A DNA stretch of 44,569 bases. Source: Escherichia phage BEU35. Within the stretch, counting starts at the first letter, position 1. Each line of letters opens with the position of its first letter. Below the pieces are notes generated by a model, which worked only from the letters and a program-made list of their open reading frames with translations, was not told the origin of the DNA and made no database searches. Where the stretch lies: sequence record OM632668.1. One strand, written 5' to 3'. Made by a program: the position numbers and the translations under genes. Shown here one piece after another: positions 21,019 to 35,817 of this stretch.

Positions 21019-21023
21019 AACTA

Positions 21024-21046
21024 AGGCCCCGAAAGGGGCCTTTTCT
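21024..21046 (+). terminator. intrinsic terminator after tailspike gene
   Basis: AGGCCCC-gaaa-GGGGCCT stem-loop followed by TTTTCT. Confidence 0.6.
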
Positions 21047-21184
21047 CTACTCTTCTGATAGCTTCTCCAGTACAAACGCCAGTTGCGCATTAGCGGCGTC
21101 TCTTTGCTGGCGTAATCGTAGAACCTCTTCTTCAAGTTCCTTGATACGTTTTTGCAACGCCGGAATCGGGGCTGTGATGTTCAT
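21047..21184 (-). CDS. small coiled-coil protein (45 aa, below ORF-track cutoff)
   Basis: ATGA overlap with upstream Toprim gene stop; translation MNITAPIPALQKRIKELEEEVLRLRQQRDAANAQLAFVLEKLSEE. Confidence 0.35.
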   Translation of the reverse strand: MNITAPIPALQKRIKELEEEVLRLRQQRDAANAQLAFVLEKLSEE

Positions 21185-21696
21185 TTGACAAATTTCCTCG
21201 CAAGATACGTTATTTCTTCTTCACAAAGTTCATCAAGGTCGTTAGATACAAATCCTCTGGAGAATGTTCTGCTAAATTTTAAACCAGCTTTATCATTGTC
21301 ACCGGCGCACACCCATTCATACGGCAAAAGTGACATTTGCTGCCGTAAGTCAGCTGGTATGTTCGACCCCAATGCGCTAACTGCATTAAACCCGCAATTC
21401 ATCAAAGCAACAGCTTTAAATATGCTTTCGGTAACAAATACCACCCCGCTACTTGGCAAATACTCAAGTCCCCATAAACACGGCCTTGTTGTTCGGGTAA
21501 AGTACCGCGCGTCTTTAGGGTTTTTACAGTTCTTTTCAGCATGTGGCTTGTAATGCTGGTATCCTCGTAGCCTACCGTCAAAACCCCACAAGTAGAATGT
21601 AGCAACGCCAGGGGCTAAGACTACCTGGAGACGGTCTGCGTCAAAACCTCGTGACAGCAGATGCGCCTTAAGTAGTAACTCCTCGCCATCCATCAT
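21181..21696 (-). CDS. Toprim-domain protein (primase-like catalytic core)
   Basis: VFVTES (conserved Glu) and AGDNDKAG (DxD) motifs. Confidence 0.5.
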   Translation of the reverse strand: MMDGEELLLKAHLLSRGFDADRLQVVLAPGVATFYLWGFDGRLRGYQHYKPHAEKNCKNPKDARYFTRTTRPCLWGLEYLPSSGVVFVTESIFKAVALMNCGFNAVSALGSNIPADLRQQMSLLPYEWVCAGDNDKAGLKFSRTFSRGFVSNDLDELCEEEITYLARKFVK

Positions 21697-23117
21697 TTCT
21701 TACCTCGTCTCTTCATGTAATTAAGCAACTCTTCCTGTACCGATTTCTTCTCGTCAGTACGTGTGGCAACAACCTCGTCCAGCGTGTCTTTAGCGACGAT
21801 GTGATAGAGGAACACCGGTCGCTCGTGCCCCGCTTGTTTCTGGCGGACCGGGCCTATACGCTCAACAACCTGCAAATAGTGCTCAAGGTTCCAGCCTTGC
21901 GAGATGAACGCCAGATGATGACCCCCGTCCTGTAAATTCAAACCATGCCCGGCTGACGCAGGATGCACGCATAAAATCTCGATTTCCCCACGGTTCCACG
22001 CTTCCATCTGCTTATTACCCTTCGCACCTTTGGCAAATGCCTGGGCCTGCGGGAATCGCTTAAGGATGCGCTCCAGTTCGTGCTTGAACTGATAGGCCAC
22101 CAGTAACGGCGCGCCCTGTAACTCTTCCACAATGGACTCCAGTGCGTCCAGTTTCGTGTCGTGCACTTTCTCCCAGTCTTTGGTTGCTTCGCCGTCAGGG
22201 CCCGAAACATACACGGCACCGGAGGCAATCTGCAGACACTTCGACGTCTTCGCCGCAGCGTTAGCCGCTTCAACTTCTCCGCTTTCCAGTTCCGCGAATA
22301 GCTTCTCCTCCATATCGATGTACGCCTGACGTGCTTTCTTCGGCAGGTCGATTTCAACCGGCACGATAACAGGCGCTTCACAACCGAACCACTCGGCGGC
22401 GTCAATCGTCAGACTGATGTCCTTCATCTTCTGGTGAATCTCGTTATCTGCACCAGGGCGGGCGTGATATTCACGTGCCATCGCAGATTTTCCTTTCTGT
22501 ACCGAATTAAACCAGCGGTCGGTGAATGCTGTATACGACGAACCTAGGCGCTCGCCAGCGTCGATAAACCAGTTCTGGCCCCACAAATCCTTGAGGCCGT
22601 TTGGTGACGGTGTACCAGTCAGGTTAATAAAACGCTTAACCCTTCCGAAAGCCACTTTACTAAGCGCCTTTGCACGCTTGCTACCACCTGAACGGCTGCG
22701 GAATGATTTAAGCTTCGTGCTTTCATCGGCAACGATAACAGTAAAAGGCCAGTCATCTTTGCCATAGTAGTCAATCAGCCACTCAATAACTTCGTAGTTC
22801 GTGCAAACCACGTTAGCATCTGACTCCAGCGCCGCGATGCGGCGCTTCTCTGAACCAGTCGCATCTACAACACGCAGACATGGGAATTGCCATTTCTCTT
22901 GCTCTGCAGGCCACGTACCAGACGCAACCCGCAGCGGGGCGAGGATTAACACGCGGTCGTCATCATTAAGTTGGCCGTTTCGGAACAGTCGGTTTAATGC
23001 CCACAGTACGCTGCCAGTCTTCCCAGCGCCCATGCTTGCCCATATGTTGCAGCGATGGTGCCGCAGCATGAACGAAGTCATGAGCTTTTGGTACTCACGC
23101 CTTTGAAACTTACTCAT
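21693..23117 (-). CDS. SNF2/DEAD-like superfamily-2 helicase
   Basis: Walker A GAGKTG, DEXH-like IVADESTK, LTGTPSPN, C-terminal helicase motifs. Confidence 0.8.
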   Translation of the reverse strand: MSKFQRREYQKLMTSFMLRHHRCNIWASMGAGKTGSVLWALNRLFRNGQLNDDDRVLILAPLRVASGTWPAEQEKWQFPCLRVVDATGSEKRRIAALESDANVVCTNYEVIEWLIDYYGKDDWPFTVIVADESTKLKSFRSRSGGSKRAKALSKVAFGRVKRFINLTGTPSPNGLKDLWGQNWFIDAGERLGSSYTAFTDRWFNSVQKGKSAMAREYHARPGADNEIHQKMKDISLTIDAAEWFGCEAPVIVPVEIDLPKKARQAYIDMEEKLFAELESGEVEAANAAAKTSKCLQIASGAVYVSGPDGEATKDWEKVHDTKLDALESIVEELQGAPLLVAYQFKHELERILKRFPQAQAFAKGAKGNKQMEAWNRGEIEILCVHPASAGHGLNLQDGGHHLAFISQGWNLEHYLQVVERIGPVRQKQAGHERPVFLYHIVAKDTLDEVVATRTDEKKSVQEELLNYMKRRGKK

Positions 23118-24039
23118 TTACCGCCCCCATGAATGCCTTTATAAATTCAGCAGCTACTTGCGGGACGATGGCATTGCCGTAACCGCGCAATCGTCCCACT
23201 CTGGCGGGTATCCCATCAGCCAGCGGGAATGTGCCGGGTTCAACTGGCCTGAATTTTCCATCCCGGCATCCGAGCCAGTCTGCCTCTGACCAGAAGCCGT
23301 GATGCGGATTGGTCGCGATATTTTCAGTCCCTGCTCCGTTGAGTAGTCCAGCCTGTCGAAAGTCCGGTCCTTTCCGTCCTTGCGAATCACTGTCTCTCCG
23401 CTCCCTCTGTAATCGTTCGCGGTCGGCGTCGCCCATGCCGTCATCGCGGCGGCCCACCCCAGTTTGTTCGGTTTCGTCCTGCCGTCTGTGCTGCGCATGT
23501 TCACGTCGTTTGTTATCAGTGATACTGCTGGCGTGGGCCAATCTATGCGCGCCGAAGAAAAGTCGGTCGCGTTTGTGCGGTGCGCCGACGCTACAAGCTG
23601 GGAGTACGGCAAACCCGACGGCGTAGTTTTCTCCTTCCAGGTGAGTTTGTAAATCGCACATCCACGATTTTGCAATTGCTGGCGCAACCTGCTCCCCAAA
23701 GAGGACTGGAGGGCGGCACTCGCTGATGAGGTCGAGGAACACAGGTGCGAGGTGTCTCGGGTCGAACTGTCCGAGTTGCTTTCCCGCTGCGCTAAACGGT
23801 TGGCAAGGCGGGCTTCCCGTCCAGAGAGGCGCATCTTCCGGAACTCCCGCAAGTCTGAGCGCGAGAGGCCAGCCGCCGATACCAGCGAAAAAATGACACT
23901 GGGTGAATCCGTCGAGGTCTTCTGGCTTAACTTCAGTAATGCTTCTTTCATCTACAACTCCAAAAGGTATGTGACCCTGTTTTATTAATTCACGCAGCCA
24001 CGCGGCTGCGCCTTTATCCCATTCGTTGTAATAGTTCAT
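23110..24039 (-). CDS. DNA (cytosine-5)-methyltransferase; central target-recognition part appears to be encoded in another frame (overlapping ORF 23154..23951)
   Basis: Motif I FAGIGG, motif IV PCQPFS, motif VIII-like PHKRDRLFFG, motif X GNAIVP in this frame; GYPPEW (GFPD-like) in the overlapping frame. Confidence 0.75.
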   Translation of the reverse strand: MNYYNEWDKGAAAWLRELIKQGHIPFGVVDERSITEVKPEDLDGFTQCHFFAGIGGWPLALRLAGVPEDAPLWTGSPPCQPFSAAGKQLGQFDPRHLAPVFLDLISECRPPVLFGEQVAPAIAKSWMCDLQTHLEGENYAVGFAVLPACSVGAPHKRDRLFFGAHRLAHASSITDNKRREHAQHRRQDETEQTGVGRRDDGMGDADRERLQRERRDSDSQGRKGPDFRQAGLLNGAGTENIATNPHHGFWSEADWLGCRDGKFRPVEPGTFPLADGIPARVGRLRGYGNAIVPQVAAEFIKAFMGAVNE

Positions 24040-24227
24040 TTTGCCACCAGAACTAACTCTTTACGCCCGAACGCCGTAACGTTACCGGTTACATCTTCGA
24101 TAACCAGTTTACCGTTCGACTCGACGTACACCGTATCAACGGCAACAGGCCGACGGGTCTTAACGTTGAAAATCATGTCGCCAGGTACGATGTCACGTGC
24201 TGGTTTGCGGTCATATTCGTGTTTCAT
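24036..24227 (-). CDS. small hypothetical protein
   Basis: First gene downstream of a strong sigma70-like promoter. Confidence 0.45.
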   Translation of the reverse strand: MKHEYDRKPARDIVPGDMIFNVKTRRPVAVDTVYVESNGKLVIEDVTGNVTAFGRKELVLVAK

Positions 24228-24257
24228 TTCTCAATTCCTTATATTGTTGGTGTAGGA

Positions 24258-24545
24258 CTAACTATAATAGTTCGCTATTAGGGCGTCAACCTGTTTAAAC
24301 GAACCAACGACAAAAACATTAGCACCACGCTTACGCATCCGCTCGTGCTCCCGTAACTGGTGTGGATCCGGCTTCGTGCTTTCGTCTTTCTTTATCTCGA
24401 CGAACCAGATGACGCCGCCGGGGAGAATTACCAGCAGGTCAGGGGCGCCGGAACGTCCTTCGTAGGAAAGTTTACGAACGAGGCCACCAATGGCCTCGAA
24501 TCGGTCTTTTGCGTATTTCTGTATTTTGCCCTCAGGCGTACTCAT
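24258..24545 (-). CDS. VRR-NUC domain nuclease-like protein (start at internal ATG)
   Basis: PDLLV ... VEIKK pattern of PD-(D/E)xK VRR-NUC proteins. Confidence 0.5.
   Translation of the reverse strand: MSTPEGKIQKYAKDRFEAIGGLVRKLSYEGRSGAPDLLVILPGGVIWFVEIKKDESTKPDPHQLREHERMRKRGANVFVVGSFKQVDALIANYYS
24261..24289 (-). promoter_or_regulatory. sigma70-like promoter (TTGACG-N17-TATAGT) for the leftward operon
   Basis: Read on minus strand: ttgacg ccctaatagcgaactat tatagt. Confidence 0.5.
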
Positions 24546-24626
24546 CCACACACCCCTCACGTTTCGTATGCGCAATACCACAGCGCGGACAGATCCGGCG
24601 GTCTTCTTCGTAGAACCAGTAAATTT

Positions 24627-24758
24627 TCATTCCAGCACCCACAGATAAATTGTTACTAACATACCTAATACGGCAACCATCATGCCGTATTGACCCTCGT
24701 GACAGTAGACACCGGCGGCGAATCCCGCCAGTACCGCAATAATCAGTTTACTTGGCAT
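24627..24758 (-). CDS. small hydrophobic membrane peptide (43 aa, below ORF-track cutoff)
   Basis: Translation MPSKLIIAVLAGFAAGVYCHEGQYGMMVAVLGMLVTIYLWVLE; overlaps the 3' end of the polymerase gene. Confidence 0.3.
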   Translation of the reverse strand: MPSKLIIAVLAGFAAGVYCHEGQYGMMVAVLGMLVTIYLWVLE

Positions 24759-27000
24759 ATCGCTTCATCTCCGCACCTTCAGCTACAAGAGGGAACCCCT
24801 CCGCCCATTCCGGCAATTCGCACATCAACCGCTCAAGCTCTGCTACATTGTATTCCGGTGAATCTGGTGTCTCGCAGATAATCTCATCGTGTACGTGAAG
24901 TACAATCGGGTAGCCGTTTGCTTCTACGTTCAGCAGGGCATTAGCCAGCAAATCACGGCACAATGCCTGAGTGCAGTTTTCCACCAGTTTACCCGAGTAG
25001 GTGTACTGGAACCCCCACTGACGGGTTAGCTGATTTTCGCCCTGGTACTTAATGCGCACGTTAGTAGACACCTTCCCGTCTCCATCTGTTTCTTTCGACA
25101 CGCTCAACCCGACGCCCGGATAAGACATAACGCGACCCGACGGCAACGTCATGCGCAACCACCAACCAGCGACTTTGTTGCCGTTGTTGTCCGTTTCTAC
25201 GTTACGCGAAAACTTAACACCCCGCGGTCCCGCAGTGAACTCTTTACCTGGATTGCGGATAGCCGCCATAGCCGCGTCTTCAATATCACGCCAGAAAGCT
25301 ACTGTTTCCGGGTGTGACTCACGCCACATGCGCTTGATAGCGTCGCAGGTACGCCACACTTTCTTATCAAGAATATACGATGGTCGGTCATCCTTTTCAC
25401 CTGGCCGCGGAGGTCGCTTGGCTTCCTGAATACGTGCCCATTCATAGCCGCGTGCAGTAGCGGCCCATATATGGTTGGGGAATGTCCCGTCCATTGTTTT
25501 TGCCATATCAACCAGGTTTAAGCCGAGGTTCTTAGCAAACTGAACGAAAGCACCGACACCACCAGCATAGCCAAGGCCCAATTCACATGCTTTACCTATC
25601 TGGCGTAGGTCACTACGGCTTTCGAGAATGTAATCAGGGTCCATGCCGAACATCTTACCCGCGGTTACACAGTAAATATCCAATCCCGCACGGAAGGTAT
25701 CGAGAGCGGTTTCTTCTCCCGCCAGCCATGCCAACCCGCGACCTTCAACGTTAGAGTAATCAGCTACGACAAACTTACGCCCGGCTTCCGGTATGATGCA
25801 GCTACGCACCGTCGATGCCGTTAGCTTGGCTACATCGAAACGGCGATGCGCGCGGCCTTTAAACAACAGGTCGATTCCGTAGGACAATGGGTGTGTTACT
25901 CTCCACCAGTCCTTCTCTGACATCCAGTCATAACGTACTTTCTTCTTTTTATTCTTCGGGTCGTCATGATAGTACCCGCGCGCCAGGTTCTGTGGCTGGA
26001 AGCCTTTACCCGCGAACCGTAACGTACGCTTTGCCCCACCGTACTGGATACAACCGCGGCGTCGGTCGTCCGACGAGCGGCCTAACAGCAGCGGGTTATA
26101 TTTCGTGGACGCTGTTGACGCGGCCCCGAGGCGCATTTCGATAATCGTGCGGGCGTCGTCAGGTAAATCATCATCGGCCAGCAGGTCATTCAGCGTCGAC
26201 TTCTGTGCGTTGTGTATGCGGTGTGCGGGGGCCAGTTCACGTAGAATAGGCAGAAAGTCCTTACCGGTAAGCGAGCCGCCGTATTTACGTTGAGCTTCTT
26301 CCTGTAACTGTGCCTTGTGCTTCTCTACGGCTTCAATCGCGGCTTCCGCCAGTGCGACGTCAACCTTAAATCCGCGGTCGTTGATTAACTGGTCAAGTTC
26401 CAGTACACGGTCTTCGAACTCGGAGTTACCCCAACGCGGCAGCTTATGGAAGACTTCACGCATCGCAGTGATGTCGCTCACGGCGTACCTGATGAACATC
26501 GCCCACTCGTCAGGGTGAGTTTCTGCGGTGTAGCGGCGGATTTTGTAGTTCTTCGGCGTCGGTTTAGAGAAACGCTTAATCAGAGCCTTGCCGCGTTTAT
26601 CTTTCGCGTTGTCTGCAGACACGCCCAGCACTTCGCACAGCGCATCAAGAGAACCCGGCAGCGCGTGACGGAACGCCCAAATCATAGTATCAATGGTGTT
26701 ACTTACCGGAATATCAAAGCCCCAGCAGTGTTTCATGATTAGGCGATCGAAAAGTCCACCGTTGTGCCATACCATCTTAATGCGACTGTTTGGCTTAACC
26801 AGACGGCGTAGAGCGCGGTGTAAATCCACGGGCATATCACTGCCGTCGGTGCAATCCCATACCTGTACAGGCTCGTCGTCAAAAGCGTAGGTACAGATAA
26901 GCACTTCGGTAGTTGGATGCTCGGCGTAAGCATAGGAGCCGACTTTCTTCAAATCGGCTTCGGAGAATGTTTCAAAGTCTAAGTAAAGCAATGTGTTCAT
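24748..27000 (-). CDS. family-A DNA polymerase with N-terminal 3'-5' exonuclease domain
   Basis: Exo I LDFETFS, motif A-like DYSNVEGR, motif B-like RQIGKACELGLGYAGG, motif C HVHDEI; ATGA coupling to upstream gene. Confidence 0.85.
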   Translation of the reverse strand: MNTLLYLDFETFSEADLKKVGSYAYAEHPTTEVLICTYAFDDEPVQVWDCTDGSDMPVDLHRALRRLVKPNSRIKMVWHNGGLFDRLIMKHCWGFDIPVSNTIDTMIWAFRHALPGSLDALCEVLGVSADNAKDKRGKALIKRFSKPTPKNYKIRRYTAETHPDEWAMFIRYAVSDITAMREVFHKLPRWGNSEFEDRVLELDQLINDRGFKVDVALAEAAIEAVEKHKAQLQEEAQRKYGGSLTGKDFLPILRELAPAHRIHNAQKSTLNDLLADDDLPDDARTIIEMRLGAASTASTKYNPLLLGRSSDDRRRGCIQYGGAKRTLRFAGKGFQPQNLARGYYHDDPKNKKKKVRYDWMSEKDWWRVTHPLSYGIDLLFKGRAHRRFDVAKLTASTVRSCIIPEAGRKFVVADYSNVEGRGLAWLAGEETALDTFRAGLDIYCVTAGKMFGMDPDYILESRSDLRQIGKACELGLGYAGGVGAFVQFAKNLGLNLVDMAKTMDGTFPNHIWAATARGYEWARIQEAKRPPRPGEKDDRPSYILDKKVWRTCDAIKRMWRESHPETVAFWRDIEDAAMAAIRNPGKEFTAGPRGVKFSRNVETDNNGNKVAGWWLRMTLPSGRVMSYPGVGLSVSKETDGDGKVSTNVRIKYQGENQLTRQWGFQYTYSGKLVENCTQALCRDLLANALLNVEANGYPIVLHVHDEIICETPDSPEYNVAELERLMCELPEWAEGFPLVAEGAEMKRYAK

Positions 27001-27275
27001 AGTCTGTACCACGTCTGATAGTCTGCTTCTGTGAGATGGTCGTCGCGATCTTGTTTCTTGTTTTTACCGCGTTCTATGATTTCTGCCCAAGTCCGGTCTG
27101 GGTCTGTGTCTTCTATTAAATGTTTATGCTCCTCGCATGCATAGTGTTTATACCAGTCTCGTACACCGTAAGCTGGAGGGTATTTAGTCATCCAAATTGC
27201 TCTAACTTTTTTACCTTCTGCCTTACAAAATTTGCAGTATGTGATGCGTCTGTATCTCTTAAGTTCCGCTGCCAT
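26997..27275 (-). CDS. small Cys/His-containing hypothetical protein (possible zinc binding)
   Basis: CKFCK ... CEEHKH pattern. Confidence 0.45.
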   Translation of the reverse strand: MAAELKRYRRITYCKFCKAEGKKVRAIWMTKYPPAYGVRDWYKHYACEEHKHLIEDTDPDRTWAEIIERGKNKKQDRDDHLTEADYQTWYRL

Positions 27276-27292
27276 TATTTTCGACCCTTAGT

Positions 27293-27314
27293 AAAAAGGC
27301 CCAATGAAGGGCCT
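27293..27314 (-). terminator. intrinsic terminator on minus strand
   Basis: AGGCCC-loop-GGGCCT hairpin followed on the minus strand by TTTTT. Confidence 0.5.
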
Positions 27315-27334
27315 TAGTTAAATTGATTCAGAAA

Positions 27335-27958
27335 TTAACGGCGGCGACGTTCGCGACGCGGTGCGTCTTCTTCGTCGTCTTCCAGGTCATCGACGCTTGC
27401 AGCTACTTTAGAACCACCGAACGCTTTACCTTCGCCTACGTATTTAATCGCCAGCAGGTTAACGCCGAGGACTTTATATTTCTGGCTGAACCAGATTTCT
27501 ACGCTTACGTTAGCAACGCAGCCGCTGTAAACCTGTTCACCTTCAATCTGTTCACCGTCTACATTGAAGTCCTGCTCTACCTGAGTCTCGCCTTTTTTAG
27601 AGGTTACAATCAGCGGTTGTTTCTGTGCCTTCGCTTTGAAGTAGAAGCCTTCCGGGAAGTCTTCAAACGGATTGTCGCGCTCGGCAATGTCTTTAATCGC
27701 GCATTTATCCATGTGCTTACCTTCACCGTAGTTGGACTTCATCCATTTCTCGGCAGCGGCTGCGCCTAACGCTTCTTCAACTACAGCGTAAACGGTGTCG
27801 TAGAGTGCATCGATTTGAGCATGGTCAGACGGCAGGATGATAGTCGCGCTGTACTGGCCTTTAGTGATTGAGCCATCATCGTTTTCACGGTCTTTTTCAC
27901 GTTCAAATACGTTAACCCATGCAGTGTTTACTTTACGCAGATTCAGTTTAATACCCAT
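27335..27958 (-). CDS. putative ssDNA-binding protein (DUF2815-like), acidic stretch then basic RRERRRR tail
   Basis: Location between Cas4-like exonuclease and polymerase; DDLEDDEEDA followed by RRERRRR. Confidence 0.45.
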   Translation of the reverse strand: MGIKLNLRKVNTAWVNVFEREKDRENDDGSITKGQYSATIILPSDHAQIDALYDTVYAVVEEALGAAAAEKWMKSNYGEGKHMDKCAIKDIAERDNPFEDFPEGFYFKAKAQKQPLIVTSKKGETQVEQDFNVDGEQIEGEQVYSGCVANVSVEIWFSQKYKVLGVNLLAIKYVGEGKAFGGSKVAASVDDLEDDEEDAPRRERRRR

Positions 27959-28026
27959 CGTGATTTCTCGCTTTTCAGTTTATATTTCAAAGTTTACTCC
28001 GGGAAGCTGCCCGGCCAGTGATTAGA

Positions 28027-28055
28027 ACTATAATAGCTAACTATTCAGGTGTCAA
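28027..28055 (-). promoter_or_regulatory. sigma70-like promoter (TTGACA-N17-TATAGT)
   Basis: Read on minus strand: ttgaca cctgaatagttagctat tatagt. Confidence 0.5.
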
Positions 28056-28244
28056 ATAAAATTTTGCAATAGGGATTATGTTCTCGAAATTAAGCATATT
28101 GGCCGGTTCGAACTCATCCTCTACAGGGTAGTATCGCATCATGGTACCGTTCAAGAACGTGAACGATTCCGAGTGTAGATACCCATCCCAGTGCCATACC
28201 ATCAAAAAATCTTTATCAGTCGGCATTTCATTTACTTGAATCAT
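28041..28244 (-). CDS. small hypothetical protein
   Basis: GGAGGA RBS 6 nt upstream; ATGA overlap with the exonuclease stop. Confidence 0.4.
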   Translation of the reverse strand: MIQVNEMPTDKDFLMVWHWDGYLHSESFTFLNGTMMRYYPVEDEFEPANMLNFENIIPIAKFYLTPE

Positions 28245-29482
28245 TCTAAATCCTCCTCTGTAACTTGATTCCACTCAGGACGTTTGTCATCCGCCGTTGC
28301 GACGCATGGCGCACCGGGCTTACGGGTAATGAAGTCTTTCAGTTCTTCTTCCGGTACAATTTTAACCGCTTCGGTCGGTGTCATAAGAACTACCTTTTGC
28401 AGCATAGTACCGTACTTCTCGAATACTGCATCGGTATCTTTCCACGCACGATTACCCGGGCGTCCTTCAACCAGTTTATACCCCGGCACTTTCTTACCGG
28501 AATGTAACGCAGCAGCCATAGCTTTCTCAACCTTGTCGATGTGCTGGCGCAACAACGGCAACTTCTCATACTCAGCTACGAGTTGCTCTGGCGTAAGCTC
28601 AAGTGCAAAGTCGTCCTCCAGTTCTTCCGCCAGCCCCGCGTTAACGGTTTTTGTACGCGCTGCGCATTGTTCAGAGAACCGACACCACTGACAACCATCT
28701 ACCGACGGCTTGAAGTCCGACGCTTTCAGGTTCTTTTTACCCCGGAAATAGGCATCAAGAGCCAACAGCGCCCGTTTCTGTGCAAACTTAGCGAACAGTT
28801 CCAGACCTTCAACCGAGATGTCCCACTCCGATGCACCGCCAGCGTACGGCTGGAAGATGACCAGTCGAACGGTTGTTATGCTATAACGTCTCTTGAGTCG
28901 GCGATAAACGCCGAGAGCATAAAGCATAAGCTGCTTGTTTTCTTTCGCTTCGACACGATGCCGCCCGGTTTTCAGGTCGCAGATGATAAGCATGTGTTCG
29001 TCGGTGTTAGCCAGTTCCTGTATGGCAACAAGGTCAGCAGTTCCGAACGTCTCAACGCCTTCATACCCCGGATGCAATACCTCAGTAAGATTAACACGCA
29101 TTTCCAGCTTGGCGTAAGTCGCTATATCGATAATCGCCTTGCAGTAGTCGGTGTACTTGCGCACCTGCTCAATCATGTCCGCCGTAATCAGTACCGCGCC
29201 TTTCATCGGGCTGATTAGTGCCTTAATCTGGCCTTTGCCTTCATCCAGCACGTAAGCACCGACTTCACGCTCTAACGGCAGCGCAGTTCCGCGAATATAA
29301 GCGTTGAGATGGACCTCAGCTATGGTGTGCATTGCCGTGCCTAATACAGCGGCTTTACCTGACGTGTTAGGGATATCTTTTTCACAGGCCAGTGATGCCG
29401 CGCAACTTAGCCACTTTTTAGCCCCTGACGGCGACAGTAAGGCATGTACATCGTTATTGCCGCCGCGTTCTTTAAGAATCAT
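28241..29482 (-). CDS. PD-(D/E)xK exonuclease, Cas4/DUF2800-like, with C-terminal Cys cluster
   Basis: RecB-nuclease-like core with CQWCRFSEQC; ends in TEEDLE. Confidence 0.65.
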   Translation of the reverse strand: MILKERGGNNDVHALLSPSGAKKWLSCAASLACEKDIPNTSGKAAVLGTAMHTIAEVHLNAYIRGTALPLEREVGAYVLDEGKGQIKALISPMKGAVLITADMIEQVRKYTDYCKAIIDIATYAKLEMRVNLTEVLHPGYEGVETFGTADLVAIQELANTDEHMLIICDLKTGRHRVEAKENKQLMLYALGVYRRLKRRYSITTVRLVIFQPYAGGASEWDISVEGLELFAKFAQKRALLALDAYFRGKKNLKASDFKPSVDGCQWCRFSEQCAARTKTVNAGLAEELEDDFALELTPEQLVAEYEKLPLLRQHIDKVEKAMAAALHSGKKVPGYKLVEGRPGNRAWKDTDAVFEKYGTMLQKVVLMTPTEAVKIVPEEELKDFITRKPGAPCVATADDKRPEWNQVTEEDLE

Positions 29483-29841
29483 CGTAAACTCTCCAAATAC
29501 AAGTTTAATGCCTGTAACTGTTCTTCTGTAGGAATGAAAGAATCATCGCGATGTAAGTCGCTTAACTGTTGCAACATTCCTGCGAACTGACGTCTTGCGT
29601 CAACAGCGTCCATGTGATGCTTTTCACTTTTATATATTAATGTTTTCGGGTAATCCTCAAGCCTGCCAGACGATTTATTCACGCGGAGCGCACGAGCTTC
29701 ATGCACAATGTGAATGTACTTTTTGCCGTTTTGTAACACAGTAGCTACGCCGCTGCTCTTTCTGCGGTCGCCGACTGTGTAAACCTTGTCGCCACTACGC
29801 AGATTAAGCCACCATTTATCGGTCATACCCTGTTCTCCCAC
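29479..29841 (-). CDS. hypothetical protein
   Basis: Operon context. Confidence 0.4.
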   Translation of the reverse strand: MGEQGMTDKWWLNLRSGDKVYTVGDRRKSSGVATVLQNGKKYIHIVHEARALRVNKSSGRLEDYPKTLIYKSEKHHMDAVDARRQFAGMLQQLSDLHRDDSFIPTEEQLQALNLYLESLR

Positions 29842-30095
29842 TGGTCAATTAAATGTCGTGTCTGGTGCTGGCAGTGCATGGCCCAGCTATACATCGACTC
29901 GAAGACATAAAAGTCAGGCTTGGCAAAAGTCGTGCGCTTAATCTGCGACACGTGACGGCCTATATCTTTGGGCCTGGGTACTTTGCCTAAGTACGCCATC
30001 TCTTCCATCTGGTGCGCACCGGAAGGAGCGCGCAATAGCCATAGAGCCTCCGTGTTATCCCGTCGGTCAATACCTCGGTAGAGTTGGTAAATCAT
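29823..30095 (-). CDS. hypothetical protein
   Basis: Operon context. Confidence 0.35.
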   Translation of the reverse strand: MIYQLYRGIDRRDNTEALWLLRAPSGAHQMEEMAYLGKVPRPKDIGRHVSQIKRTTFAKPDFYVFESMYSWAMHCQHQTRHLIDQWENRV

Positions 30096-30137
30096 ATTAC
30101 GACCCTCTGTTAAAGCGGCCAGAAGGCCGCGGGATAG

Positions 30138-30641
30138 TTATTCTTCTTCGAAATACTTGTTCTTAATCGCCGTCAGGCGTTTCAGGTATTCAGCCAGGTC
30201 TTCGTCTTTAATCGCGGCAATCTTCATTTTCTTACCGGTGAACTCCTCCAGCAGTTCATCGGAATCGTCGCACGCAGCATCGCTAGGACCTTCGTTAATT
30301 GCATCGTCGATAGCCTGAATCTGGTCACGAAGAGACTGGTAATCGACCTCTTCTTTCTCTTCTTCTGGTTCTGGAGTCGGCTCCTCTACTTTAGCTTTAC
30401 GCGGCTTGCGTTTCGGCTTCTCTTCTTCTTCTGCTGGTTTAGCGTCAACGATGTCTTCACCTTCAACAGGGATTTCTTTTGTTGCTTCTTTTTCGCACTC
30501 AGCTACCGCTTCTTTGGTATACACTACCGTCTCTACTTCTAACGGCGCTGCAACTTGTGCTGACTGTTTCGCACTGTTCGCAGCAATCAGTTCATGTGCA
30601 ACTACGAAACGTTCCAGTAATTTTAAGAATTGTTCTAACAT
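30138..30641 (-). CDS. highly acidic hypothetical protein
   Basis: E/D-rich with internal KPKRKPRKAK; second gene of leftward early operon. Confidence 0.5.
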   Translation of the reverse strand: MLEQFLKLLERFVVAHELIAANSAKQSAQVAAPLEVETVVYTKEAVAECEKEATKEIPVEGEDIVDAKPAEEEEKPKRKPRKAKVEEPTPEPEEEKEEVDYQSLRDQIQAIDDAINEGPSDAACDDSDELLEEFTGKKMKIAAIKDEDLAEYLKRLTAIKNKYFEEE

Positions 30642-30663
30642 TTGTTTCTCCTGTTTATTTAGG

Positions 30664-30891
30664 TTACTCGCCGTCGCCTTCTGTAAGGCTATCGTCTATT
30701 AATTCAAATTTACCGTTTGAGTGTTGGATAGCTTCTTGCCCGCAATGGTCGCAAACCACCAGTTTATCGAATCCGTCAAACTCGTCCCCGACTACGCAAG
30801 AAAGTACAAATTTATGTTTTGTACATACTTCTTGATGTTCACCGAAAATTACCCGGAAACATTTAGTTATAGCTCCAGTGATTATGTTCAT
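30664..30891 (-). CDS. small Cys/His-rich protein, paralog A
   Basis: Near-identical core to ORF 35878..36090 (QEVCT-HKFVLSCVVGDEFDGFDKL-VCDHCGQEAIQHSNGKFELI). Confidence 0.55.
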   Translation of the reverse strand: MNIITGAITKCFRVIFGEHQEVCTKHKFVLSCVVGDEFDGFDKLVVCDHCGQEAIQHSNGKFELIDDSLTEGDGE

Positions 30892-30919
30892 ATCTTCACC
30901 TCTCGTTTGGTATGGGCTA

Positions 30920-30949
30920 ACTATAATAGCGAACTATTCATGATGTCAA
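30920..30949 (-). promoter_or_regulatory. sigma70-like promoter (TTGACA-N18-TATAGT) for leftward early operon
   Basis: Read on minus strand: ttgaca tcatgaatagttcgctat tatagt. Confidence 0.5.
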
Positions 30950-31013
30950 TGGGCTTTTCTAAAATAATTAATATGGTACTATTCACACATCAACTGACTA
31001 AGGAGTAATTGAC

Positions 31014-31229
31014 ATGCAACCATCCGAACTAGGCATCCGTGTAGAGCAACGCCGTAAAGAACTCGGCATCTCCCAGCGCCGTCTGGCGGTCCTGACCGGC
31101 GTTTCCCAGGGCGCAATTAACCAGCTGGCTCTCGGTGTAACTCAGGACGTCCGCCCGGCAACGTTGTTTAAACTGGCGGAAGTGCTGGAAGTAGACGCTA
31201 AGTGGCTGGCGTTCGGTGAAGGGGCTTGA
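31014..31229 (+). CDS. XRE-family helix-turn-helix transcriptional regulator (Cro/CI-like)
   Basis: ISQRRLAVLTGVSQGAINQL HTH signature. Confidence 0.65.
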   Translation: MQPSELGIRVEQRRKELGISQRRLAVLTGVSQGAINQLALGVTQDVRPATLFKLAEVLEVDAKWLAFGEGA

Positions 31230-31247
31230 CGCCCCTTTCTTTTTATT
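31219..31247 (+). terminator. intrinsic terminator overlapping the regulator stop codon
   Basis: GGGGC-ttgac-GCCCC followed by TTTCTTTTTA. Confidence 0.55.
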
Positions 31248-31440
31248 GCACCTTTATCGGGTATCTTTTGCGAAACTTACCTAACCCGCAGTACACGCTG
31301 TAAGCCTCTGTGTAACTGAACACAACATGATACCCGCGCCCATAAGGAACTACGTTAAGAACTTCTACTACTTCGCCTCTGTGGTTGGTGTATTTATTAC
31401 CTTTCAGTTCGTCGCTTACTTCTTTAAATTTACCGCTCAT
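31243..31440 (-). CDS. small hypothetical protein
   Basis: GGAGGA RBS; ATGA overlap with primase stop. Confidence 0.4.
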   Translation of the reverse strand: MSGKFKEVSDELKGNKYTNHRGEVVEVLNVVPYGRGYHVVFSYTEAYSVYCGLGKFRKRYPIKVQ

Positions 31441-33704
31441 TCCAAATCCTCCTCTGTCACTGTCAACATTTCATTCGGTTCGTATATTGTCTTTGGAATC
31501 TTGTTATCAGTTATTCTGGTGTTCAGCCTGTAACGACCTGGGATTATCTGATTGTTTTCGTCAGTACCCGGAACAAGATACCCGGCCTCAACCATTTTCT
31601 TAATCTTCCCGCGTTCTATGGCTTCTTTGGAGTTAAACGCCTTTGCGTTGGGGTCTGACTGTGCGAGCTTATTCGCCGCGGCGACTGTGATGCCTTCGTT
31701 GCCGTTGTAGGTTCCTTCCGCCAGTTCAAACGCCGCGAGTATCGTGGCCTCCGAACTGTTGACGGCGTTCTCTACGGTTTTACGTACATTTTCTTTACCT
31801 TCTTTCGTCAACCCTTCTTCCCGCTCTTTCTCCTCGTCAGTTTTGAACGGCTCGAAACCCCACGGCATCAACACAAGCGCCTTGTGTGGTTCAGGCAGGT
31901 CCAGGTTTACGATTGTGCCGTATTCCTCTGTGCTACCCAGGAACTCAACCGCTCGGTATTCTTTAGGTGGCGGCGCTTCACGGAACTGTACCGACTCCAG
32001 CACCATGCCAACCGTCTTCTGCTGAGGCCCGTGCTTGAATTTCGAGTGATATACGTTTATCTGACGGTCGGTTGCACGTTCGATTGTCAGTTCCACATCA
32101 ACACCCGCATACAGCGCCCCACTGCCGCGTGCTTTCTTTCCACCCTTCGGCGTATGGTGGACAACGCCTACTGCGGCTTTAGTTGCATCGCGTACTTCTT
32201 TCAGAATGGCGATAACTTTACCCATGCCGATTGCTGTTGATGAACTGTTCTCGTCGAACTTATCAATCGTCAGTGCCAGGGTCTGGTTAAGGGTGTCGAA
32301 CGCAACCATGCCAATTGGCTCGTCGCCAGCAGTTTCGCGCATTAACTTAATCAGGCTTTTAAGTTTGCCGACTTCGCCCATATCGATGACATGTACATAA
32401 TCTTTACCTTCCTCGCCGTATTTAGCCGCGAGCGCATCAATACGTGTACGTGTGGCTGCCCCACCCTCGCCGTCGATATAGAAATGGTGACAACGCTGGG
32501 TGTCAGCCCCTGCAAACCGGTATCCGGCGGCGCTCAGGTACATCATCCCCAGCGTATAGAATGATTTGTACGTGCCCGATTCTCCGACGATACCCCAGAT
32601 ACAATCCGACGGCATGTACCCCTCAACGACGAAATCAGCCTTTACCGGCTCCGGTAACTCGTCCTCCTCTGAGTCCTCGTCGTCTTCCAGGTCGTCGAGG
32701 CTGCATGAGACAGATTCACGCGCCCCCCAACCGATGGCCTCTGCGACTTCACTGAACGGCAGCCCGGTCGCATCGCACGCGTACTTCCACACCTCTTTCG
32801 GTGACAGGCCTTCTGTCGCCGTAATGTCTGTGTCGTGAATCATGGTTACGTTTGGCGCTTCATACCCCTCGCGCGGGAAGCACAGCAGGAAGTCGTCCGG
32901 GCGCGGTGTCGGGTCGCTGTAGTTTTCAGCATGTTCCGGTGTGGCTGGCATCTTAAGGCCGCGCGGCGTCATGACGCCGCCGTACTCAAACGCCAGTGCT
33001 TCAAACGCGTCTGTAAACGCGGTGCGCAGTTCTTCCGGTATCTGGTAATCCGATGCGCTGCTAACGTCAACGGCTGGGATGCCTTCCAGTAACTCGTTCG
33101 GGTCGATCAGGTCGTTGCGGCGCGACCAGATAACGGTAGCGCCGACCGGCGGCAGGTACATCGGCTGCGACAGAGTGAACCCGCTGCGGTCCGCACCCAT
33201 GCCTTTGAAGAAGTGCTCCAGCAACCCATGACGAACACGGATGATATCACCACCCTCAACTGGGCGGGCCAGCGGCATGACGACGCGAAAGCGAGGCGAC
33301 TCATCGGTATGTGATGCCGTGGTGTAGAGACACATCGCCCGGCGGCTGCGATTAACCAGGCGCACCGCTTCCTGGTACTCTTCCGGTGTTGCACTGTCGA
33401 AGTCCAGATACGCCAGCGACGATTTGCTCACAGACGCGTCACAGCGATAGAAGAAGCCTTTACGCGCTTGTTTAAAGCCACCGGTTTCCGGGTCTTTTAC
33501 GGTGCTGTGTGTAGAATCGCACGCGGCCGTGATATAACCGGGCGCAGTCTTGGGGTTAATCCCGTCACGAACGGCATCGAGCGGCTGGATTAACTCTTTC
33601 AGGTCGTCCAGTGTTGCCGTGTGTGCGGTTCTGACATTTATATCCTTTTTCCCCGCCCGCGCGTTGCGGCGTGACCACGAGTAGGATAAAATTACATCGG
33701 ACAT
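31437..33704 (-). CDS. DNA primase/helicase-like replication protein (central P-loop ATPase)
   Basis: Walker A GESGTYKS, acidic linker DDLEDDEDSEEDE, 755 aa, ends in TEEDLE. Confidence 0.65.
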   Translation of the reverse strand: MSDVILSYSWSRRNARAGKKDINVRTAHTATLDDLKELIQPLDAVRDGINPKTAPGYITAACDSTHSTVKDPETGGFKQARKGFFYRCDASVSKSSLAYLDFDSATPEEYQEAVRLVNRSRRAMCLYTTASHTDESPRFRVVMPLARPVEGGDIIRVRHGLLEHFFKGMGADRSGFTLSQPMYLPPVGATVIWSRRNDLIDPNELLEGIPAVDVSSASDYQIPEELRTAFTDAFEALAFEYGGVMTPRGLKMPATPEHAENYSDPTPRPDDFLLCFPREGYEAPNVTMIHDTDITATEGLSPKEVWKYACDATGLPFSEVAEAIGWGARESVSCSLDDLEDDEDSEEDELPEPVKADFVVEGYMPSDCIWGIVGESGTYKSFYTLGMMYLSAAGYRFAGADTQRCHHFYIDGEGGAATRTRIDALAAKYGEEGKDYVHVIDMGEVGKLKSLIKLMRETAGDEPIGMVAFDTLNQTLALTIDKFDENSSSTAIGMGKVIAILKEVRDATKAAVGVVHHTPKGGKKARGSGALYAGVDVELTIERATDRQINVYHSKFKHGPQQKTVGMVLESVQFREAPPPKEYRAVEFLGSTEEYGTIVNLDLPEPHKALVLMPWGFEPFKTDEEKEREEGLTKEGKENVRKTVENAVNSSEATILAAFELAEGTYNGNEGITVAAANKLAQSDPNAKAFNSKEAIERGKIKKMVEAGYLVPGTDENNQIIPGRYRLNTRITDNKIPKTIYEPNEMLTVTEEDLE

Positions 33705-33762
33705 GTTGTATTTCCTTCAGCAAGTAATTTGGCCTCGGCGTTCACCGCGTCGGGGCTTTCTT

Positions 33763-33996
33763 TTATTCCAGGTCTTCTAAAGTAGCGGTCATTCCGCGAA
33801 CTTCAGCAAAGGCACTATATTTCCCGCCAACATTTTTCACGACGCCAGATTTAACCAGCACTTTTAACGACCCTTCAATAATGACGGAACTATAGTACTT
33901 AAAATAACTGCGGCGCAAGTCGATAACGCTGCACGACCCTTTTTTACGTGTCAACGAAACGACCGCCGTAAATACGCGTGACTGAAACTCGGTCAT
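33763..33996 (-). CDS. small hypothetical protein ending in TLEDLE
   Basis: Operon context; C-terminal motif shared with exonuclease and primase. Confidence 0.4.
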   Translation of the reverse strand: MTEFQSRVFTAVVSLTRKKGSCSVIDLRRSYFKYYSSVIIEGSLKVLVKSGVVKNVGGKYSAFAEVRGMTATLEDLE

Positions 33997-34196
33997 TTCA
34001 CGTTCTCCTTAATCCACGCTTCCACTTTCTCCGGGTCGAACGTACCGGGCTGCCGGCGACCCATAATGCGGATACAACAATCAGGGAACCTCCCACTCTT
34101 TAACCAGTTATTAAGCGTGCGGCGAGTAACCCCGATACGCTCAGCTACTTCATTCTGTGTCATTCTCAAACCCTCATTATCAGTTAACGAAACCAA
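33993..34196 (-). CDS. AlpA/MerR-like helix-turn-helix DNA-binding protein
   Basis: MTQNEVAERIGVTRRTLNNW HTH signature. Confidence 0.55.
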   Translation of the reverse strand: MVSLTDNEGLRMTQNEVAERIGVTRRTLNNWLKSGRFPDCCIRIMGRRQPGTFDPEKVEAWIKENVK

Positions 34197-34599
34197 GTAT
34201 ACATTGCGAATAATGGGAAATCAAACATAATCGCACCTATTGACATTATGAAAATCTTCGTTTAAGGTGCTTCTATATCTTAGTTACTTTGATTCCTGTT
34301 CACCTTGTAATACCTGCTTGAAACGCAGCGGCGCCAAAGCGCCAGCGAAGTGTTAAGCAGCAGATTACTGAACATAAGAATTACCGTAACTTTCCTTCCG
34401 TAGTATCTCTGGTTGCCCTGGGCAAGCTCTATTCTCATCGGCAGCATATCTCTTAAGTATCTGATAATTAAAAGTTTCTATAGTTGCCGTGAGCAAGGTA
34501 GAGAGTACTTCACTCCGCTGGGGTGGGCTAACGCCCACCCACTGCGTTGCGTACTCTTTTAAGAAACGAAAGAATCACAACGGCAACGTAACTATTCTC

Positions 34600-34628
34600 T
34601 TGCACACCCCAACATAATAGGATACTAT
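34600..34628 (+). promoter_or_regulatory. sigma70-like promoter (TTGCAC-N17-TACTAT)
   Basis: Hexamer spacing read from sequence; shares aataggNtactattca with promoters near 30977 and 35841. Confidence 0.4.
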
Positions 34629-34662
34629 TCACTTATCGAAACGAGACAGAGGAGTGAGGGTT

Positions 34663-34854
34663 ATGTTTAAGAAGGGTCAGTTGGTTAAAACTAAACGCGG
34701 AGGGCAATATGTATTAGTGTTGCAGGACGAGAGCGAGTATGACGAGGATAATCTGGTTGACGTATGGGGTCTGGTAAGAAAGAAAACTGGGTTCGCCTCA
34801 CGCGATAATTTAGAACTCATCGGCAACAATTTTAAATTCAAAGGGGTGAAGTGA
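34663..34854 (+). CDS. hypothetical protein
   Basis: GAGGAG RBS; first gene of rightward operon. Confidence 0.4.
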   Translation: MFKKGQLVKTKRGGQYVLVLQDESEYDEDNLVDVWGLVRKKTGFASRDNLELIGNNFKFKGVK

Positions 34855-35060
34855 TGGAAGAATTAATTTGTATTGAATCCCGCCAGGATTGGTTTGTGAA
34901 AGGTAACAAATATTCGTCAGGAGTATATTACGACGGCCGTCGATACGTTTTAGATGAAGACGGTGATGAATGGGATTTAGAGGACACTGTGGGCGAGACT
35001 TTAACCGTTAGTTTTCTTCAATGTTGTTTCCGCATCATTCACAACGGCATCGAATCATGA
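34851..35060 (+). CDS. hypothetical protein
   Basis: 4-nt overlap coupling. Confidence 0.4.
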   Translation: MMEELICIESRQDWFVKGNKYSSGVYYDGRRYVLDEDGDEWDLEDTVGETLTVSFLQCCFRIIHNGIES

Positions 35061-35142
35061 GGCTCGTGCCGACGACTCTGAGGGAGGTTGCCGTGGATAA
35101 TATTTTAATTGTCAGCGCTGTTTATGTGGGGTGGAGGTTGAT

Positions 35143-35337
35143 ATGAGTCCATATAATGAATTCCGCTTACGCCGTCTTGTTGGTGGGCTGCGCGCCGCCG
35201 AGTTTGGCGTTGAATGTTGGGAAAAGGCGAAGTACACCCCATGGAAGTCGTGGAATTTGGCCCACGCTAAGGCGGTAGCGCAGTACCGGGAGTACAAGTT
35301 AAATAGTTTCCTAAAGCACCACGGGGTAGAGCTATGA
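35143..35337 (+). CDS. hypothetical protein
   Basis: GGTGGAGG RBS upstream of ATG. Confidence 0.4.
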   Translation: MSPYNEFRLRRLVGGLRAAEFGVECWEKAKYTPWKSWNLAHAKAVAQYREYKLNSFLKHHGVEL

Positions 35338-35477
35338 GAGAAGCATTCGAACGGTGGGCCGTCGTCGAGGGTCTGCCGGTTAACAAGGGTTCAAAGAAAG
35401 AGTACCTGAACGTTAAGACGCGTCTTGCGTGGCGGGCGTGGAAAGCTGGTGTGCAGTATGTGATGAATACGAGGTGA
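35334..35477 (+). CDS. small hypothetical protein (47 aa, below ORF-track cutoff)
   Basis: ATGA overlap upstream, next gene 3 nt downstream. Confidence 0.35.
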   Translation: MREAFERWAVVEGLPVNKGSKKEYLNVKTRLAWRAWKAGVQYVMNTR

Positions 35478-35480
35478 TTT

Positions 35481-35669: not shown

Positions 35670-35703
35670 CAGGTCAATAGTTTACTATTTGGCTTTGTGA
35701 CTT

Positions 35704-35740
35704 ACGCTGCTACACAGCAGCGTATCATTTTTCTCATTTT
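35704..35740 (+). terminator. intrinsic terminator
   Basis: ACGCTGCT-acac-AGCAGCGT followed by T-rich run. Confidence 0.55.
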
Positions 35741-35817
35741 TGTTCTATTTCACCAAACGCAACAATCGAAGCGACTATTGCGGGAGATGCAACAATACAA
35801 ACACCAATAAAATTTAC

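Follow-up and report, generated by a model that had tools for sequence, protein, structure and literature searches.

An inverted repeat shared by the predicted promoters of Escherichia phage BEU35, a candidate operator for a 434-Cro-like XRE protein

The genome of Escherichia phage BEU35 (OM632668.1), a Kagunavirus (Guernseyvirinae), was analyzed here as a stretch of 44,569 nucleotides, referred to below as the window, with special attention to a predicted leftward promoter at positions 28,027 to 28,055. This promoter (B) and two others of similar architecture (A and C) appear to carry a phage-wide operator, the 14-bp inverted repeat AATAG-N4-CTATT. The most likely binder of this repeat is a dimer of the 71-residue XRE protein encoded at 31014..31229, a homolog of the Cro protein of phage 434, which would repress the promoters in question. 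On the strength of the sequence comparisons described below, we consider this reading to be probable.

The repeat and its conservation

A previous sequence-only reading of this DNA had pointed to three minus-strand elements of the form TTGAC(A/G)-N17/18-TATAGT. All three are present where it had placed them, with the CTAT-TATAGT context common to A, B, and C and the string TGAATAGTT common to the sites at 28055 and 30949. They are as follows.

28055..28027, minus strand: promoter B, TTGACACCTGAATAGTTAGCTATTATAGT, TTGACA-N17-TATAGT, with the -35 hexamer at 28055..28050 and the -10 hexamer at 28032..28027
28045..28032: dyad of promoter B, AATAGTTAGCTATT, class 1, centered near -18.5
24289..24261, minus strand: promoter A, TTGACGCCCTAATAGCGAACTATTATAGT, TTGACG-N17-TATAGT, class 1
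24279..24266: dyad of promoter A, AATAGCGAACTATT
30949..30920, minus strand: promoter C, TTGACATCATGAATAGTTCGCTATTATAGT, TTGACA-N18-TATAGT, class 1
30938..30925: dyad of promoter C, AATAGTTCGCTATT

These elements are predicted to be promoters of the host (sigma70) type. They are the top three minus-strand matches in a sigma70 consensus scan of positions 20000..39999, a region in which promoter-like matches taken as a whole are not above chance (16 vs. 19.3 expected). Their hexamers match the consensus at 11/12, 11/12, and 10/12 positions, with spacers of 17, 18, and 17 bp, and each of them is located 28–68 nucleotides 5' of a minus-strand start codon having a Shine-Dalgarno sequence. The pattern TTGAC-N18-TATAGT, with one mismatch at most, gives three matches where 0.70 are expected, and one of the 100 shuffles also reaches three.

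The spacers of A, B, and C hold a perfect dyad, AATAG-N4-CTATT, whose final T also opens the -10 hexamer. The spacer therefore does contain a conserved unit, as had been proposed, but this unit consists of an inverted repeat of 14 bp, or 18 bp when its flanks are included, and not of the fragments quoted at the time; together with the flanks, the Kagunavirus operator reads approximately (T/A)(G/T)AATAG-N4-CTATT(C/A)(A/T). Exact copies occur at seven places, on both strands (10913, 24266, 28032, 30925, 34616, 35676, and 35834), and copies with one mismatch at four more (30970, 38519, 42310, and 43572). Only 0.03 exact copies are expected, and the maximum in 300 dinucleotide-preserving shuffles is one; with one mismatch at most, the 11 copies compare with 1.09 expected, a number which none of 100 shuffles reaches. 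The enrichment is specific to this sequence: 5-N4-5 palindromes of any given sequence occur in three copies at most in the shuffles, and AATAG-N4-CTATT alone stands above the background. In an unbiased count of all the 5-mer dyads with gaps of 0–8, it ranks first in the window, in phage fBC-Eco01, and in a Jerseyvirus. Dyads with two mismatches are close to the background level (25 vs. 14.8 expected; up to 30 in the shuffles) and are mostly located inside coding regions; these copies were left out of the membership count. The family of three leftward promoters previously described thus has to be replaced by a set of about 9–11 sites on both strands, which includes rightward promoters. A reading of the dyad as an RNA or DNA hairpin was rejected: its folding energy of -1.5 to -2.8 kcal/mol does not surpass that of shuffles, and it lies 5' of the predicted transcription start.

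Ten of the 11 copies are intergenic or located at the end of a gene, the exception being that at 43572, and eight overlap -35 or -10 hexamers. The overlap occurs in three registers. In class 1 (A, B, and C), the dyad spans approximately -25 to -12, reaching from the spacer into the first position of the -10 hexamer; in class 2 (three promoters of the form TTGCAC-N17-TACTAT), the right half-site is itself the -10 hexamer and the dyad spans approximately -19 to -6; and in class 3, it lies over the -35 hexamer of a probable late promoter. Both orientations relative to transcription are found. The fact that there are three registers and both orientations fits a separate DNA-binding protein and does not fit recognition by RNA polymerase.

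The comparison with related phages points in the same direction. Exact dyads are present at orthologous positions in Golestan (8), in fBC-Eco01 (7), and in the Jerseyviruses SE2, Kenya-K5, 95YS, and HBW1 (3–5). When A, B, and C are compared between Kagunavirus and Jerseyvirus, 29 of the 30 half-site positions are identical, as against 2 of the 12 positions of the central N4 and 3 of the 12 in the four nucleotides between the -35 hexamer and the dyad. Among 39 relatives of promoter B from IMG/VR, which amount to 17 distinct variants, the half-site columns are 0.94–1.00 conserved, and eight different central tetramers occur. The promoter is kept in these relatives and the DNA located 5' of the -35 hexamer is unrelated between genomes, which is the mark of mosaic junctions. 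The claim that the spacer is conserved beyond what RNA polymerase needs is borne out by these data, since the half-sites are almost invariant and the neighboring bases scrambled. An invariant distal half-site, scrambled neighbors, and the occurrence of three registers in both orientations, taken together, indicate a dimeric DNA-binding protein rather than contacts with RNA polymerase.

In the more distant SE1/sp9 clade, a variant motif, AATAC-N4-CTAAT, is present in three exact copies per genome, placed on -10 or -35 hexamers:

Salmonella phage SE1: AATAC-N4-CTAAT at 3081, 7098, and 33576
Second genome of the clade (L048): AATAC-N4-CTAAT at 5196, 15995, and 20004

With one mismatch at most, two of these genomes carry seven copies vs. 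2.1 expected and nine vs. 1.9 expected. This variant is not enriched in the window.

Candidate binders and rival explanations

The gene for the candidate binder and the end of its transcript are as follows:

31014..31229, plus strand: XRE (HTH_3) gene, 71 residues, Pfam HTH_3 E-value 2.3e-12
31218..31238, plus strand: intrinsic-terminator-like hairpin with a T-run, which ends the XRE transcript

Its best match in the PDB is the Cro protein of phage 434 (1zug, 2cro, 3cro; E-value 2.1e-6), aligned over residues 6–68 vs. 4–64, both proteins being 71 residues long; its PHROG matches are transcriptional repressors. The 434 Cro protein recognizes 14-bp operators in which the outer bases are conserved and the center is variable. 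Since this is also the geometry of AATAG-N4-CTATT, it supports XRE as the binder. In addition, the divergent region of 122 bp between XRE and the leftward genes is filled by two copies (30925 and 30970), and the latter copy overlaps the -10 hexamer of XRE, so that it is likely to be an autoregulatory operator.

The bases adjoining the half-sites provide a further argument. The base immediately outside the half-site is T in 34 of 34 cases in Jerseyvirus, and G or T equally often in Kagunavirus (20/44 each); the XRE alleles are also divided by genus, with about 50% identity. The other small helix-turn-helix protein encoded nearby, the AlpA-like protein discussed below, shows another pattern, since its recognition helix in the window (TRRTLNNW) is that of Jerseyvirus, and Golestan and fBC-Eco01 have TRQTINNW. 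The fact that the flank changes with the XRE allele and not with the AlpA-like helix suggests that the type of operator tracks XRE. Phage Jersey is a case in point: it has a Kagunavirus-like promoter B region, a Jersey-type XRE, and the T flank (CCTTAATAGTTAACTATTAT vs. CCTGAATAGTTAGCTATTAT), and its operator B forms a fuller palindrome, TTAATAGTTAACTATTAT. A Gln residue opens the recognition helix in all the XRE alleles. The SE1/sp9 clade, which is devoid of the AlpA-like gene, has kept an XRE that is 40% identical and heads the primase operon; of the 10 XRE-proximal proteins tested there, no other has a helix-turn-helix. A search of 5.8 billion proteins for XRE homologs with other genomic surroundings gave 20 matches, all 78–98% identical, and yielded no independent context, the two contigs examined belonging to this phage group; five intermediate alleles were retrieved, with an identical recognition helix. 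The earlier suggestion that the spacer might be an operator for the XRE-like protein is therefore the best-supported reading, in view of the dyad, its enrichment, its comparative footprint, the homology with 434 Cro, the copy on the gene's own promoter, and the co-variation of the flanks, although the binding itself is something we infer.

Several findings weigh against this assignment. The recognition helices of the two genera differ at several positions (SQGAINQL in Kagunavirus vs. SQSLITHL in Jerseyvirus), whereas the 10-bp core is unchanged, and the helix of the SE1 clade, TQSAISHL, is nearer to that of Jerseyvirus even though the motif differs, so that the co-variation is not clean. The counts on which the flank co-variation is based are not phylogenetically independent, amounting to about 5–8 distinct sites per genus. 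The SE1 variant motif, found in both orientations to promoters, is consistently asymmetric, and a conserved asymmetry is odd for a homodimer. In class 2, the half-sites resemble -10 hexamers (TACTAT, TATTAT), and their conservation may be due partly to promoter function. Lastly, the presence of a copy on almost all the promoters, the probable late one among them, makes a simple model of early shut-off incomplete. In time-course RNA sequencing of the Kagunavirus K1B4 (PMC12645636), which is coarse and gives no start sites, an "HTH" gene is among the early genes.

Among the alternatives, the one involving another phage regulator concerns the AlpA-like protein:

33996..34163, minus strand: HTH_17 ("AlpA/excisionase-like") gene, 56 residues, Pfam HTH_17 E-value 3e-7, domain at residues 1–54

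It is the first gene of a leftward operon which also holds the primase-helicase gene, and its product could be an immediate-early protein that binds the dyad, either repressing or licensing all the other promoters. The gene lies downstream of a promoter candidate without a dyad (34224..34196), as might be expected in that case, and its product, 84–88% identical across Kagunavirus and Jerseyvirus, is conserved exactly across the two genera having AATAG dyads and is absent from the SE1/sp9 clade, in which the exact AATAG dyad is lacking. The binding element of the Pseudomonas aeruginosa AlpA likewise sits between -35 and -10; however, that protein has at least 142 residues and acts as a monomer on a 6-bp element, for which it needs an N-terminal part that enters the channel of RNA exit (PMC9371919), and a 56-residue protein with a 14-bp dyad in three registers is unlike it. 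Proteins of the HTH_17/excisionase type have no obvious dimerization module, and no PDB sequence match was found for this one, so that no relative of known structure supports any particular binding geometry. Moreover, the alleles of its recognition helix do not follow the type of operator flank, and a related motif occurs on promoters of the SE1 clade even though the gene is missing there. The presence or absence of the two genes has little power to discriminate between them, since every Kagunavirus and Jerseyvirus has both and the SE1/sp9 clade alone lacks the AlpA-like gene. On balance, this protein seems unlikely to be the binder. A related candidate, a loading site for a Q/AlpA-type antiterminator, was discarded on the grounds of protein size and site geometry; no -10-like pause hexamer common to the initially transcribed regions of A, B, and C was found, only B having TCTAAT.

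It might also be that there is no dedicated regulator. The promoters share leader sequences downstream, …(C/T)ACACCAAC… and AAACGAGAGGAG (the latter including the Shine-Dalgarno sequence), for example at 30910..30895, 34636..34655, and 35853..35870, and this is so in all three clades, which makes them look like copies of one promoter-plus-leader cassette. The conserved spacer could then be due to descent or to a preference of the polymerase, with cores that are perhaps bidirectional: the half-sites read TACTAT/TATTAT, the bottom strand of CTATTATAG contains TATAAT, and the site at 10913 could serve two back-to-back promoters. Against this stands the invariance between genera of the distal half-site, which lies at about -25 to -21 where it has no role in polymerase contact, between two neighboring stretches that are scrambled. 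The three registers and both orientations of the dyad, the exact dyad at 35676 to which no promoter corresponds, and the shift of the outer flank by genus in step with the XRE allele also argue against it, and we take this explanation to be improbable. Recognition by a host transcription factor, or by another phage protein that went unrecognized, is still more doubtful. A 14-bp, 5-N4-5 geometry is common to many helix-turn-helix dimers. The core of the Escherichia coli trp operator, ACTAG-TTAA-CTAGT, differs from the dyad by one base per half-site, and the sites at 38519, here and in the Jerseyviruses, do have an ACTAG half; the C of ACTAG is nevertheless an A in nearly all the dyad sites. The motif changes between phage clades on the same or closely related hosts, which speaks for a phage-encoded partner; of the small early proteins tested, XRE and the AlpA-like protein alone gave a helix-turn-helix match.

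The view taken in the paper on fBC-Eco01, where seven 20-mers found by PHIRE (as they were in Golestan) are assigned to a phage-encoded RNA polymerase (PMC9825357), can hardly be correct. The annotated records of Golestan, fBC-Eco01, SE2, SE1, and Jersey show no gene for an RNA polymerase, which led us to reject this reading, and the element is palindromic, occurs in both orientations to genes, and is embedded in good sigma70 -35/-10 pairs. Two other known arrangements were also rejected: activation of the MerR type, since the spacers are 17–18 bp long, and an immunity region of the lambdoid CI/Cro type, since only one Cro-like gene is present, the annotations of the relatives show neither a CI-type repressor nor an integrase, and the operators are single and dispersed.

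Distribution of the sites and the proposed control circuit

The other dyads and the promoters associated with them are listed here in the order of the window, with the dyad-free leftward candidate.

10942..10914, minus strand: class 2 promoter, TTGCAC at 10942..10937 and TACTAT at 10919..10914, the dyad at 10913..10926 overlapping the -10 hexamer
30970..30983, plus strand: dyad of the XRE promoter, AATATGGTACTATT, one mismatch; probable extended -10 promoter, with TG at 30974..30975 and TACTAT at 30977..30982
34224..34196, minus strand: promoter-like TTGATT-N17-TATACT, ahead of the AlpA-like and primase-helicase genes; a leftward promoter candidate
34600..34629, plus strand: class 2 promoter, TTGCAC at 34600..34605 and TACTAT at 34623..34628, the dyad at 34616..34629 overlapping the -10 hexamer; heads the first rightward operon of small genes
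35676..35689: orphan exact dyad, AATAGTTTACTATT, with no recognizable -35 hexamer, between the stop codon of open reading frame (ORF) 35481..35669 and a terminator at 35703..35724
35818..35847, plus strand: class 2 promoter, TTGCAC at 35818..35823 and TACTAT at 35841..35846, the dyad at 35834..35847 overlapping the -10 hexamer
38524..38552, plus strand: probable late/packaging promoter, TTGACT at 38524..38529, N17, TATATT at 38547..38552, following a strong terminator after the lysis genes
38519..38532: dyad of the late promoter, ACTAGTTGACTATT, one mismatch, centered on the -35 hexamer (class 3)
42310..42323, plus strand: dyad TATAGTATGCTATT, one mismatch, after a terminator-like hairpin and ahead of a Mu F-like head-morphogenesis gene
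43572: dyad with one mismatch, inside ORF 42316..44286 and tied to no promoter

Promoters A, B, and C lie within the leftward replication and recombination block, which runs on the minus strand from 34196 to 21047. Promoter B is followed by the gene for an Enc34-type single-stranded DNA-binding protein (27958..27335) and then by the DNA polymerase gene; promoter A by a small gene (24227..24036) and then by methyltransferase and helicase genes; and promoter C, which is divergent from the XRE gene, precedes the leftward genes starting at 30891 (small genes and an exonuclease gene). The class 2 promoter at 10942..10914 heads a leftward cassette (10898..8472) inside the tail module, which encodes a superinfection immunity protein, an exonuclease, and a polynucleotide kinase, and that at 35818..35847 heads the second rightward operon, composed of small genes and starting at 35878. 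No copy of the dyad with two mismatches or less was found at the 34224..34196 candidate.

The imperfect sites have counterparts in other genomes. The 30970 dyad, in which the mismatch yields the extended -10 sequence TGgTACTAT of a promoter without a good -35 hexamer, recurs unchanged in Golestan and fBC-Eco01; in Jerseyvirus, the XRE promoter has the form TTGCAC-N17-TACTAT with a degenerate copy, ATTAT-TGTA-CTATT. At the late promoter, Jerseyviruses have AATAGTTGACTAGT at the same place, with the defect in the opposite half-site. Exactly one ACTAG half-site is thus present in both genera, on opposite halves, which suggests that there has been selection for a weakened late site. The orphan dyad at 35676, which precedes the operator at 35834 by 158 bp, has a counterpart in Golestan, where the central tetramer differs, and none in fBC-Eco01. 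The Golestan equivalent of the 42310 copy figures in the PHIRE list as lying "before ORF3" (PMC7203180).

Several of these sites overlap or adjoin other features. The upstream ORF 28041..28274 ends on the TAG in the left half-site of operator B (28041..28043), and promoter A lies wholly within the 3' end of ORF 24258..24581, so that these regulatory sequences are also under coding constraint; the ortholog of the latter ORF in phage Jersey is annotated as having a VRR-NUC motif, and Pfam gives no family for the ORF of the window. Near the predicted 5' end of the mRNA of the single-stranded DNA-binding protein, a GC hairpin, CCGGG-CAGCTT-CCCGG (27999..28014, minus strand, -8.7 kcal/mol), is kept in Kagunavirus, Jerseyvirus, and the SE1 clade; it shows no covariation and its energy is not better than that of shuffles, and it might be a 5' stabilizer or a translational operator. 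The first gene after promoter C (30664..30891) encodes a 75-residue protein belonging to a PHROG of unknown function; over 30647..30920, the DNA of this gene matches part of the genomes of T7-like phages, including Kayfunavirus AN24P4, PM139, and SHAK9454, with 80–90% identity, which points to a recent horizontal exchange between unrelated coliphage families. At 10913, the other half-site of the dyad makes a back-to-back plus-strand promoter, TTGGTG-N16-TATTAT, possible. Between this dyad and the tail assembly chaperone gene (starting at about 11051), the Rfam int-alpA RNA motif (RF02996) is matched at 10961..11025 on the plus strand, with multiple stems (36.6 bits vs. a gathering threshold of 35.8; local E-value 2.7e-6). 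A motif known from the interval between the int and alpA genes of prophages would not be expected here; it could be transcribed from the putative plus-strand promoter sharing the 10913 operator.

If XRE is indeed the binder, the circuit might work as follows. The host RNA polymerase would use the dyad-bearing promoters, and XRE would be expressed from the weak extended -10 promoter of its gene. As the XRE dimer accumulated, it would occupy the operators, exclude the polymerase, and turn the promoters down; the overlap between the operator and core promoter DNA means that XRE binding should exclude RNA polymerase. Repression would set in first at the perfect operators, namely those of the replication, accessory, and rightward promoters, and the imperfect copies at the XRE and late promoters would respond less or later. 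The one-mismatch copy on the XRE promoter suggests negative autoregulation, and the defective half-site at the probable late promoter suggests weaker repression. A more far-reaching version is conceivable, which we put forward tentatively and hold to be possible rather than probable: an orphan homolog of 434 Cro, without CI, would run most of the transcription in a strictly virulent siphovirus family, graded single operators in three registers would set the temporal order, and the flank would co-evolve with the repressor allele. If this were true, the order of gene expression would be set by an accumulating repressor.

The phages of this group are virulent siphoviruses of about 44 kb, and more than 500 genomes of the phage collection match the window. 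Positions 20000–40000 are 100% identical to Escherichia phage BEU33 and 92–97% identical to Golestan, phiEc3/4, and other Kagunavirus genomes; no integrase, CI, or RNA polymerase is annotated in the records of the relatives. Outside the promoters, the window shows some rearrangements. A 2.7-kb block, running from the C-terminal portion of the portal gene up to and including the head-morphogenesis gene, is located at the end of the window, unlike the situation in BEU33 and Golestan, and the portal gene is consequently split (1264..1818 and 41338..42279); a 171-bp piece (35895..36065) and a 58-bp piece (1797..1854) are placed elsewhere in BEU33. The rearrangements at 1..1854 and 41332..44569 could reflect either a misassembly or a genuine mosaic, and promoters A, B, and C are untouched by them. 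The Mu F-like head-morphogenesis gene (42316..44286, 656 residues) contains an insertion of about 897 bp (43008..43904, plus strand) in comparison with Golestan and BEU33. This insertion is probably an intein; its match to Pfam Intein_splicing is weak and below the cut-off (E-value 4.4e-4), and an intein is reported for the related phage Snoke (PMC6776784). Lastly, a 400-bp non-coding stretch (34197..34600) between the AlpA-like gene and the rightward promoter contains several long-range inverted repeats and a TTGACA-N17-TAAGGT element at 34241. A scan of 34100..34700 with Rfam gave no match, and the stretch could be a replication origin or an RNA gene.

Comparison with earlier annotations and known systems

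As a string, the repeat was already known. PHIRE lists 20-mers as promoters both in Golestan (PMC7203180, Table S4) and in fBC-Eco01 (PMC9825357, Table S2), seven in each, with the consensus tgAATAGTa-ccTATTat-T in the latter case, where they were ascribed to a phage RNA polymerase. These elements are the dyad, and they occupy the same positions in the genome; TAATAGCGAACTATTCACAT, TAATATGGTACTATTCACAT, and TGAATAGTATCCTATTATGT are examples. The lists are incomplete, since Golestan's seven do not include promoters A and B and those of fBC-Eco01 do not include B and C, and in the passages of the two papers that were searched, neither the dyad symmetry, nor the variable register relative to the sigma70 hexamers, nor a link with XRE is discussed. 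In the record of phage Jersey (KF148055), "similar to TTGACA(N15-18)TATAAT" is the annotation given to the orthologs of A, B, the rightward promoter, and the late promoter; it is based on a consensus match only, and no operator is annotated. In the literature searched on Jersey-like phages, the PHIRE lists were all that was found, and neither an operator reading of the repeat nor a link with XRE. Reading the 20-mer as a Cro-type operator would correct the published annotations as phage-polymerase promoters, and would define a regulon of about ten promoters together with a candidate regulator. Kagunaviruses and Jerseyviruses rank among the most frequently isolated candidates for phage therapy and biocontrol of E. 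coli and Salmonella; a compact repressor/operator pair with natural allelic variants might also be usable for phage engineering.

Some known systems resemble this one in part. At promoters of the MerR type, over-long spacers of 19–20 bp are distorted by the regulator. The dyad of A, B, and C is likewise located inside the -35/-10 spacer, but the spacers here have the optimal length of 17–18 bp, the hexamers are near-consensus, and no coiled-coil protein of the MerR family is encoded. The AlpA element of the P. aeruginosa promoter PalpB, a loading site for a Q-like antiterminator, also lies between the -35 and -10 hexamers of a sigma70 promoter, and the regulator bears the name AlpA; that element is 6 bp long, asymmetric, and dependent on a sigma-dependent pause site, whereas here there is a 14-bp dyad in several registers and a protein of 56 residues.

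The closest parallel is with phage 434. Cro-like repressors with promoter-overlapping operators are textbook objects, and the present finding leaves general concepts unchanged, the proposed circuit being of an ordinary kind for a phage. The operators of 434 Cro and CI are 14 bp long, of the form ACAA-N6-TTGT, and are located at OR and OL. The resemblance includes a full-length homolog (71 residues in each case), a 14-bp dyad overlapping the core promoter, and the probable targeting of the regulator's own promoter. The differences are that the half-site is AATAG instead of ACAAG/T, that about 9–11 single operators are dispersed in the genome instead of being grouped in threes at two control regions, and that the phage is virulent and has no CI partner, integrase, or lysogeny module.

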